A stretch of 63,241 nt of DNA from Candidatus Micrarchaeota archaeon (lineage in GTDB: Archaea; Micrarchaeota; Micrarchaeia; Anstonellales; Anstonellaceae): positions 1-63,241 of the forward strand of contig JAOAJF010000002.1 of the NCBI GenBank assembly GCA_026414325.1, written 5' to 3'. The notes under the pieces were generated by a model. It worked only from the letters and a program-made list of their open reading frames with translations, did no database searches and was not told the origin of the DNA. The stretch's first letter is position 1. Every line of letters starts with the position of its first letter. This document shows, piece after piece, positions 6,470-24,453 of this stretch. A program made the position numbers and the translations under genes.

Positions 6470-6595
6470 ACAACCACAAAAATTTTCAGAAATTATTTTT
6501 CTTCATTTTGGCTAGCCAATCTGGCAGTCGAACTCTCATCAACAGTAAATAAATTTAAAATAAACAAATAAAAACATTGTGTATGAAATTTATTT

Positions 6596-14819: not shown

Positions 14820-14921
14820 GGAGGGGTAGCAAAGCCTGGTCAAATGCGCAGGACTCAGAAGAGCGCAGCTGGGCAATCCTGTCCCTAAGTGGGTTCGTGG
14901 GTTCAAATCCCACCCCTTCCA
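14820..14921 (+). tRNA. tRNA-Leu (anticodon CAG) with a 16-nt intron at the canonical 37/38 position
   Basis: Acceptor GGAGGGG/CCCTTCC. Anticodon stem CAGGA...TCCTG is interrupted by AGAGCGCAGCTGGGCA (14860-14875). Long variable arm TCCCTAAGTGGGTTC, T-arm GTGGGTTCAAATCCCAC, followed by a T7 run. Confidence 0.85.
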
Positions 14922-22621: not shown

Positions 22622-23731
22622 TTGTATAAATCTCAATATATTATGAAAAATATGCTAACTCTTTCTCCATGTTCTAAGGAACTTACTAAACTTATCAAAT
22701 CTACTAGTCAGTATTTTAAGTATCATAAAATGAGCGGGCTTTATTTAAATGTAGCAAATGCTACAAACACATTTTTTAGTTCTAATTTTAACAAAGAAGA
22801 AAAAATTTTAGCTAAACATCTTTTTAGTTGTTTTATTTATTCTACCTTAGTAAATAAATACAAAATTAGTAAAGAGATTTTGCAAAATACTAACTTATGG
22901 GTTAACTTTTCTAATGGTTCTATCTTTCTTTATGCTATTAAAAGTAAAGAGAATCATCCAAAATTAGGAGATTATTATTTTATAGTCCCAATAATCGATG
23001 AAAACCCAAAAGCTTATGGGCATTATTGTGTTTTTTCAGATGAAATTTTTGTAGTCTTAAATAGATTGCCTCAATATTTTAGTTCTGAAAAATACCAAAA
23101 ATTTGCCAAAAAGTTTAGCTTTTCTGAAATATTGGATGGAGCTATTTTACATGAGCAAAACCATAGGGTTTTCTCTTATCAACTAGATCCTATTTTTAGA
23201 TATCTCTATCTTCTTGTAGATGAGAAAACATTAAATAATTTTGACTTTCTTTGTAGGGAACTATATGAATTTTATGCCTATATTGCAAATGCAAAATACT
23301 CTGTAGAACAAACAGCACTAACTGCCCTATATTTATCAGAATATAAAAGCTCTGGAAACATTCATCGTTGCGCCTTGGAAAGACTTTTCAACTATCTATC
23401 TTGCTCCATTAATGGTTCTAGTAAAAAAACCGCTCAAAACCTTGAGTCTTGTTTATTAAAACTATCTGAAAAATTAAGTTTGAGTAAAAAAGAATTAAAT
23501 CATTTAGAAGAAAGTTTTGGGCTATTGGCATTTAAAAAGGATTTTTTAAGGCTATTTGGTTTAAACTATTTTATTAATTTAGAAAAAGAATTGCAAATAG
23601 CTCTAAACAATCTTTCAGCCTTTATATCAAAACATTTTGATTATTTAGAAGACTTTAAAGACGAGTTAGGACAGAATCTTTCTAAAATTTTAAACTCTCT
23701 TAAAAAACTAAACAACTTATTTAACTTTTAG
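22622..23731 (+). CDS. Hypothetical protein containing an HExxH motif
   Basis: 369-aa ORF (TTG at 22622; first ATG at 22643). AILHEQNHRVF is the only motif seen. Confidence 0.45.
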   Translation: MYKSQYIMKNMLTLSPCSKELTKLIKSTSQYFKYHKMSGLYLNVANATNTFFSSNFNKEEKILAKHLFSCFIYSTLVNKYKISKEILQNTNLWVNFSNGSIFLYAIKSKENHPKLGDYYFIVPIIDENPKAYGHYCVFSDEIFVVLNRLPQYFSSEKYQKFAKKFSFSEILDGAILHEQNHRVFSYQLDPIFRYLYLLVDEKTLNNFDFLCRELYEFYAYIANAKYSVEQTALTALYLSEYKSSGNIHRCALERLFNYLSCSINGSSKKTAQNLESCLLKLSEKLSLSKKELNHLEESFGLLAFKKDFLRLFGLNYFINLEKELQIALNNLSAFISKHFDYLEDFKDELGQNLSKILNSLKKLNNLFNF

Positions 23732-23777
23732 TCGAGCATTAACTTTTTATTTAACTTTATTTATACTATTAATGTCG

Positions 23778-23827
23778 ATGATGAGACCGCTCCAGTATGA
23801 TTTAATGATTAGCGGAGTAGCTTCTGA
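23778..23827 (+). ncRNA. C/D-box sRNA candidate (2'-O-methylation guide)
   Basis: ATGATGA (C) - 12 nt GACCGCTCCAGT - ATGA (D') - TTTA - ATGATTA (C') - 12 nt GCGGAGTAGCTT - CTGA (D). Both guides have exact 12-nt spacing. The guides are GC-rich in an AT-rich intergenic region. Confidence 0.6.
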
Positions 23828-23976
23828 GCTTGTTGCTGTTTTAGAAAAAACAATAAAGCTATTCTTTCAATTCCTTTAATCTTTTTAAATTCCAAAAATT
23901 AAGTTCTTCTGAAAAAATTTTAACTGCACTTTTACCATTAAAACCAAAATTTAAAAGTATTATAAAAAACAGCTTT

Positions 23977-24453
23977 ATGTATTGGGACAATCGCTATGAT
24001 GTTTTTTTAAATCTTCCTTTTATAAGGAGAGATATTTTTCCAACTTATCCAGAGATATCTTATGGAGAAGATAAAATAGCAGCAAATAAACTCAAAGATT
24101 ATTATAAACATGCAAAAAAATTTGTACTAGAAGAAGAGTTTTTAAGATTTCAAGAAGATTTTTCTATCCATTCGTTTATAAAAAGATATCTCTGGTATGG
24201 AAGAACTTTTTTACCATATTTAAAACTATGTGCAGATAAAAAAGAGTATATAAGAATCTTGTTATCTGTTTTCGGAGTATTTTTTCCAATCTTTCTTTTA
24301 ATTCCATTTTTTGTTGGATTTTTTGATTCAATAAAATTTTTAAAAATTTATCCAGCAAATTTAGTCTTTTTCCCATTATTTGCAGTTTTTGCTAGTTGGT
24401 TGATGGGCGTAGGTTTTCTATTAGGATTTTTTTACAAAGATTTAGGCCATTAA
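23977..24453 (+). CDS. Membrane protein resembling only the C-terminal half of a GT2 glycosyltransferase (possible gene remnant)
   Basis: YGEDKIAANKL ... FIKRYLWYGR resembles the GT2 ED / Q(R)xxRW region, followed by 2-3 TM helices. There is no DxD-containing N-terminal domain, and only ~245 bp lie upstream. Confidence 0.4.
   Translation: MYWDNRYDVFLNLPFIRRDIFPTYPEISYGEDKIAANKLKDYYKHAKKFVLEEEFLRFQEDFSIHSFIKRYLWYGRTFLPYLKLCADKKEYIRILLSVFGVFFPIFLLIPFFVGFFDSIKFLKIYPANLVFFPLFAVFASWLMGVGFLLGFFYKDLGH

Follow-up and report, generated by a model that had tools for sequence, protein, structure and literature searches.

Based on our analysis, we conclude that the 50-nt element at positions 23778-23827 of the plus strand is very probably the gene for an independently transcribed dual-guide box C/D sRNA, with guides directed to two sites in domain V of the 23S rRNA (E. 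coli positions 2247-2258 and 2434-2445). The window, by which we mean the whole 63,241-nt stretch of DNA that was analysed, belongs to a metagenome-assembled genome (MAG; G000) of Micrarchaeota (DPANN), of 798 kb in 62 contigs, with 30% G+C and a completeness of 84%. A single public sequencing run contains the stretch, a DNA run from a hot-springs metagenome, and no RNA run was found to contain it. As read from the sequence, the element and its genome have the features expected of an archaeal box C/D sRNA, namely the C and D boxes, the D' and C' boxes, the guide spacers, complementarity to rRNA and the genes for the protein machinery. Under the N+5 rule the two guides would direct 2'-O-methylation of G2251 and U2438.

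The layout of the core was re-read base by base. Box C (AUGAUGA, or ATGATGA in the DNA; 23778-23784) is followed by the D' guide GACCGCUCCAGU (DNA GACCGCTCCAGT; 23785-23796), box D' (AUGA; 23797-23800), the D'-C' loop UUUA (23801-23804), box C' (AUGAUUA; 23805-23811), the D guide GCGGAGUAGCUU (DNA GCGGAGTAGCTT; 23812-23823) and box D (CUGA; 23824-23827), all on the plus strand. Boxes C and D are invariant across our alignment of homologues (A1). Box D' is CUGA in many homologues and box C' is either AUGAUGA or GUGAUGA, while the D'-C' loop ranges from 3 to 10 nt and is unconserved. Both guide spacers are 12 nt long in the element, as in each of the 33 aligned homologues, and the guides contain 67% (D') and 58% (D) G+C compared with 30% for the genome. 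The original prediction had described a 50-nt plus-strand element in an intergenic region with these boxes in this order, exact 12-nt spacing in both halves and GC-rich guides on an AT-rich background, and each of these points was confirmed.

The ORFs on either side of the sRNA, both on the plus strand (22622-23731 and 23977-24453), leave a gap of 245 nt, and neither has a Pfam match at an E-value of 0.01 or better. A TATA-like box, TTTTTATTTA (23744-23753, plus strand), is positioned ~25-34 nt 5' of box C and may serve as the archaeal promoter of the sRNA. Homologues carry a TATA-like octamer ~26-36 nt 5' of box C (TTTATAAA, TTTTTAAA, TTTATATG and TTTTATTAA) within flanks that are otherwise unrelated. 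The transcript is probably ~55-62 nt long, including the 50-nt core. Additionally, the plus-strand flanks at 23772-23777 and 23828-23833 contain the 5' and 3' strands of a terminal stem, which among homologues consists of 2-5 bp and covaries (GGC/GCC, UGC/GCA, GGU/ACC and UAG/CUA). In columns 3-5 and 65-67 of alignment A1, 85% of the cells are paired, and in 13 both partners have changed. This level of covariation was reached by none of 500 shuffles, and controls in which the stem was slid gave 22-57%. In the source MAG itself the stem is weak and nearly absent, with about one C-G pair.

A search for the genes of the box C/D machinery, which the original prediction had suggested as a check, identified all three in the MAG, each with a score above the Pfam cut-off: fibrillarin (C59:21043-21693; 268.9 bits), Nop5 (C9:2645-3310; 197.6 bits) and L7Ae (C14:10499-10774; 94.2 bits). 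In many archaea nop5 and the fibrillarin gene form an operon. In this MAG the two genes are not adjacent and are found on separate contigs of 16 kb (C9) and 30 kb (C59). By analogy with known archaeal C/D RNPs, the C/D and C'/D' pairs would fold as a k-turn and a k-loop to be bound by L7Ae, and Nop5 and fibrillarin would assemble next on the L7Ae-bound RNA. Each 12-nt guide would then form a duplex of ~10 bp with the 23S rRNA, allowing fibrillarin to methylate the 2'-hydroxyl of the nucleotide opposite the guide base that lies five positions upstream of box D' or D.

No 16S or 23S rRNA genes were detected in the MAG, which is incomplete at 84%, and the targets were therefore read from relatives, namely a congener (G001) in which the 50-nt sRNA core is identical, and rRNAs from across the order. 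The D' guide pairs with GCUGGGGCGGUA in the 23S rRNA of relatives including the congener. This segment is the helix 80 P-loop, E. coli 2247-2258, where the E. coli equivalent ACUGGGGCGGUC begins at position 2247 (numbering checked on rrlH of NC_000913). Positions 2-11 of the guide pair at 10 of 10 positions with the congener's 23S rRNA (2248-2257), forming nine Watson-Crick pairs and one G.U wobble, and the wobble directly adjoins the nucleotide predicted to be methylated, G2251.

The D' match was equalled by 14 of 300 shuffled guides when compared with the 16S and 23S rRNAs of the congener, and in our reading of these sequences this target is argued for more strongly by the comparative pattern. 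Almost all of the variation in the D' guide among homologues consists of C/U exchanges opposite the GGGG run of the P-loop, giving the variants CGCUCC, CGUUCC, CGUCCC and CGCCCC. One compensatory change was identified, in G171, where a G-to-A change in the guide is paired with a C-to-U change in the P-loop. Furthermore, the homologues from outside Micrarchaeota have the D' guide UACCGCCCCAGU, which is complementary to the Iainarchaeum P-loop ACUGGGGCGGUA at all 12 positions. The end bases of the guide (the first, by box C, and the last, by box D') vary freely, which fits a duplex of ~10 bp. Structures of C/D RNPs show a guide-target duplex of roughly that length.

The best rRNA match of the D guide is AAGCUACCCCGG, a segment that is invariant in the 23S rRNAs of the order and corresponds to E. 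coli 2434-2445, so that the N+5 rule predicts Um2438. The guide forms 9 of 10 possible pairs with the congener's 23S rRNA (2435-2444). Taken alone this match is unremarkable, as 68 of 300 shuffled guides did equally well. The D target was instead fixed by comparing guide and target from the same genome in 24 related genomes, with changes counted per genome. Guide position 10 forms a G-C pair in 17 genomes, an A-U pair in six genomes from three families (G162, G022, G124, G117, G168 and G026) and a G.U wobble in one. Guide position 4 forms a G-C pair in 21 genomes and an A-U pair, with the target AAGUUACC, in three genomes of family f6 (G172, G023 and G171). These double changes at positions 4 and 10 identify the 23S site as the D target. 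At position 8, all 24 genomes have an A.C mismatch.

The G.U wobbles in the D' duplex and the A.C mismatch in the D duplex mean that the literal guide complements, ACTGGAGCGGTC and AAGCTACTCCGC, which the original prediction had given as targets, are not the targets. The real sites are GCUGGGGCGGUA and AAGCUACCCCGG, and since both guides pair imperfectly, a search for exact strings of at least 9-10 nt would partly miss them. Two 16S sites of the congener, AAGCUAAUCCCC and GAGGUACUCCGA, were also considered as D targets and rejected; both are poorer, neither covaries with the guide, and one of them has a mismatch adjoining the target nucleotide.

Selection may account for the kept A.C mismatch and for the non-Watson-Crick position opposite G2252. 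Such mismatches may block pairing between the CCCC-containing and the GGGG-containing guide, or may tune product release. In toy folds the predicted hairpin of the real RNA had an energy of -12.9 kcal/mol, compared with -15.0 when both guides were made perfect and -8.1 when the D' guide alone was made perfect. Guide-guide self-pairing as the cause of the A.C mismatch was set aside as speculation, as the pairing is not present in all homologues.

In domain V, the two target sites are separated by 187 nt and flank the peptidyl-transferase centre. Archaeal dual guides usually target nearby sites, and chaperone roles have been discussed for them (PMC7994747); the 187-nt spacing fits this preference for neighbouring sites. 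An sRNA that bridges both sites might aid the folding of nascent domain V in addition to guiding methylation. A stronger form of this proposal is that the RNA does assemble into a C/D sRNP, with one or both guides acting mainly as a pre-rRNA folding chaperone that connects helix 80 and helix 74, and with methylation slight or absent, particularly at the D site with its mismatch. The A.C mismatch kept in every genome would be understandable on that basis, as would the G.U or A.G oppositions beside the D' target nucleotide and the placement of both targets within a single domain. However, the register of the guides relative to boxes D' and D is exact in all homologues, a property that matters for methylation and not for mere pairing. 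In addition, G2251 recurs among the methylation sites predicted in other archaea (PMC4644070), and N. equitans has the D guide in a perfect pairing. We consider a chaperone with little or no methylation unlikely, and favour a methylation guide at both sites.

The mismatch at position 8 can also be read in another way, in which the true target of the D guide would be a different RNA, such as a tRNA, 5S rRNA, RNase P RNA or SRP RNA, with a perfect AAGCUACUCC. In such a target the conserved A at position 8 would pair with a U, and the 23S match is, as described above, not significant when taken alone. Yet the 35 tRNAs identified across the genome all lack the targets of both guides, which extends to the whole genome a statement that the original prediction had made for the tRNAs of the window and rejects tRNAs as targets. 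The best other near-matches in the genome fall within or antisense to protein-coding frames. The compensatory changes at positions 4 and 10 follow the 23S rRNA of each genome. A different D target is therefore very unlikely, and we retain the 23S site for this guide. As a separate observation, several of the 35 tRNAs have introns, as expected for an archaeon; among the tRNAs is a 102-nt tRNA-Ala(CGC) at 14820-14921 of the window.

The sRNA is widely conserved. The D' half (box C, guide and box D'), searched with up to three mismatches, was found in 10 other genomes of the order, representing six genera and four families, and a control with the reversed pattern gave no matches. Each of these 10 genomes contains a complete dual-guide RNA. 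We then used a covariance model (R1), built from the 15 distinct sequences of alignment A1 and giving E-values that are to be read as rough, to search collections with one genome per species. The model matched 134 of 151 genomes of the order, nearly all in single copy, and 58 of the 62 that are of high quality. In a phylum-wide sample 72 of 151 genomes had a match, and two families were nearly without one (1 of 45 genomes in f13 and 0 of 25 in f14). The boxes and guide cores are invariant and the flanks and D'-C' loop (3-10 nt) are not conserved.

An exact degenerate pattern, run against one genome per prokaryotic species, identified 14 contigs, which came from Micrarchaeota and from MAGs labelled Iainarchaeum, Aenigmatarchaeota, 'Bathyarchaeota' and 'Nanohalarchaeota'. 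Four of the loci (L055, L056, L063 and L064, labelled Aenigmatarchaeota, 'uncultured archaeon', Bathyarchaeota and Nanohalarchaeota) have near-identical sRNAs and flanks (ggta...accttatg). These MAGs probably represent one lineage, in which the names Bathyarchaeota and Nanohalarchaeota may have been assigned wrongly.

A chance occurrence can be excluded from the conservation together with pattern controls, in which a strict dual-guide regular expression matched once in both strands of the 798-kb genome and not at all in 40 random genome-sized first-order Markov sequences. The same observations bear on the weakest alternative, that the boxes are a chance match in AT-rich intergenic DNA or a cis-acting k-turn bound by L7Ae in the 5' leader of the ORF at 23977-24453: although that ORF is on the same strand 150 nt downstream and L7Ae reportedly binds mRNA leaders in archaea, the element recurs in over 130 genomes whose flanks are unrelated and its guides covary with rRNA, and this reading is effectively refuted. 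Folding of the naked RNA was no better than that of shuffled sequences (z = -0.46), which is expected for a C/D sRNA and lends no support. Taken together, the machinery genes, the order-wide conservation and the compensatory changes between guides and targets support the proposal of a dual-guide C/D sRNA with which the original prediction began.

The 23S genes of the relatives appear, from their sequences, to be intron-rich around the peptidyl-transferase centre. In G152 (L044:768-1500), G021 (L048) and G173 (L106) an intron of ~716-862 nt lies inside the P-loop target of the D' guide (GGCUGGG|intron|GCGGUA), with the junction GGCUGGG|AGUCC.... The D' guide would consequently pair fully only with the spliced rRNA and, if this is true, the intron would order methylation after splicing. 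An ORF of 210 aa, antisense to the rRNA, occupies part of the G152 intron (~730 nt) and has a LAGLIDADG_3 domain (E = 5e-9). Insertions were also observed just 3' of the D target in the 23S genes of L108 (G124), L044 (G152) and L111 (G026), where they follow GGGGUA or GGGGUAA at approximately E. coli 2449-2451, and BLAST alignments split near that region in G168, G022, G023 and G133.

The strict and loosened regular expressions and model R1 at one stage suggested that the sRNA was the only one of its kind in the genome. This idea was rejected because at least two more candidates, whose boxes are degenerate, were identified. The first, at 6486-6542 of the window on the minus strand, consists of TTGATGA, GAGTTCGACTGC, CAGA, a palindromic loop TTGGCTAGCCAAA, ATGAAGA, a 10-nt AT-rich spacer and CTGA. 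The second is intergenic and lies outside the window on the minus strand of another contig (C23:6688-6744; L126), with TTGATGA, GAATACGACTG, CAGA, an 11-nt loop, ATGAAGA, TATTGACTTGACT and CTGA. The two candidates have box variants and a CGACTG guide core in common. The D-guide core of the second, GACTTGACT, and its CTGA are kept in two congeners (G001 and G002), and its best target guess is a weak one in 16S rRNA (GUCAGGUUAA; eight Watson-Crick pairs and two G.U). No convincing rRNA target was identified for either candidate.

With respect to biological meaning, the sRNA is an ordinary member of a known RNA class, its mechanism is a textbook one and both target sites have precedents. No C/D sRNA from Micrarchaeota was found in the literature searched. 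Our results add to the MAG a non-coding gene that is invisible to ORF-based annotation, and they provide testable predictions, Gm2251 and Um2438, beside the peptidyl-transferase centre of an uncultured DPANN lineage. Of mild interest are the near-universal conservation of a single copy in an order with reduced genomes, the A.C mismatch and the P-loop introns.

A fast turnover of guides has been reported for other archaea. On the evidence of the genomes searched, the single-copy sRNA of the present study, found nearly throughout the order and also in MAGs of the Iainarchaeum and Aenigmatarchaeota type, contrasts with this turnover. Since the guide pair is kept across the order and beyond, it should be a useful anchor for studying the evolution of guide RNAs and for annotating related MAGs. 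Among seven archaea studied previously, no guide target was common to all (PMC7994747). We tentatively raise the possibility, which we regard as rather unlikely, that DPANN archaea with small genomes have in this sRNA an ancient core guide that replaces a stand-alone P-loop methyltransferase.

Among the closest known systems, the Pyrococcus C/D families of Rfam (sR20, RF01140; sR44, sR11, sR1 and others) have the same size, box order and 12-nt spacers. At gathering thresholds, an Rfam search of the whole window identified only tRNAs. A permissive scan of 23600-24000 gave sub-threshold matches to many of these families, full-length and at the exact coordinates of the sRNA. The best was to sR20, whose gathering score is 44, and reached 26.6 bits (E = 0.0012). 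Despite the full-length alignment, the guides are unrelated and the scores are far under the gathering thresholds, and the sRNA belongs to no Rfam family.

The D guide has a counterpart in NeqsR14 of N. equitans (Randau 2012; Dennis et al. 2015, PMC4644070 Additional file 1). In that RNA the D guide AAGGAGUAGCUG is a perfect match to the N. equitans 23S segment AAGCUACUCC, and N14 is marked at the start of this alignment block (PMC4644070 supplements). The two RNAs have in common the guide core GGAGUAGCU, located by box D, and their D guides address a common 23S site (AAGCUAC...; E. coli 2434-2445). In N. equitans guide position 8 forms an A-U pair, whereas in Micrarchaeota the target has a C and the opposition is A.C. 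The D' half of NeqsR14, GAGAAAGCACAAT, is unrelated to that of the Micrarchaeota sRNA and has no P-loop target, and its boxes are degenerate (AUGAAGA and CAGA). The two RNAs share the D guide core alone, and the sRNA described here is not of the NeqsR14 type.

The predicted D' target is a site modified by more than one route. The same P-loop guanosine is 2'-O-methylated by a protein enzyme in bacteria (RlmB) and by Pet56/Mrm1 in yeast mitochondria, and corresponds to Gm2619 of yeast 25S rRNA, guided by snR67. The bacterial and mitochondrial enzymes for Gm2251 are stand-alone proteins of the SpoU type, and in the eukaryotic snoRNA the second guide is a different one. In archaea, G2251 (alignment position G2520) is predicted to be C/D-guided in three of seven species studied by Dennis et al. 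(PMC4644070), and these guides are predicted to address the same nucleotide of the helix 80 P-loop as the D' guide here. The labels of sRNAs from P. calidifontis, T. tenax, M. kandleri and I. hospitalis stand above that region of the published alignment (PMC4644070). The partner guides differ, as the rows of the table in that study pair G2520 with U2544 or G2490. The likeness seen between these archaeal RNAs and the Micrarchaeota sRNA is confined to the guide and the boxes.
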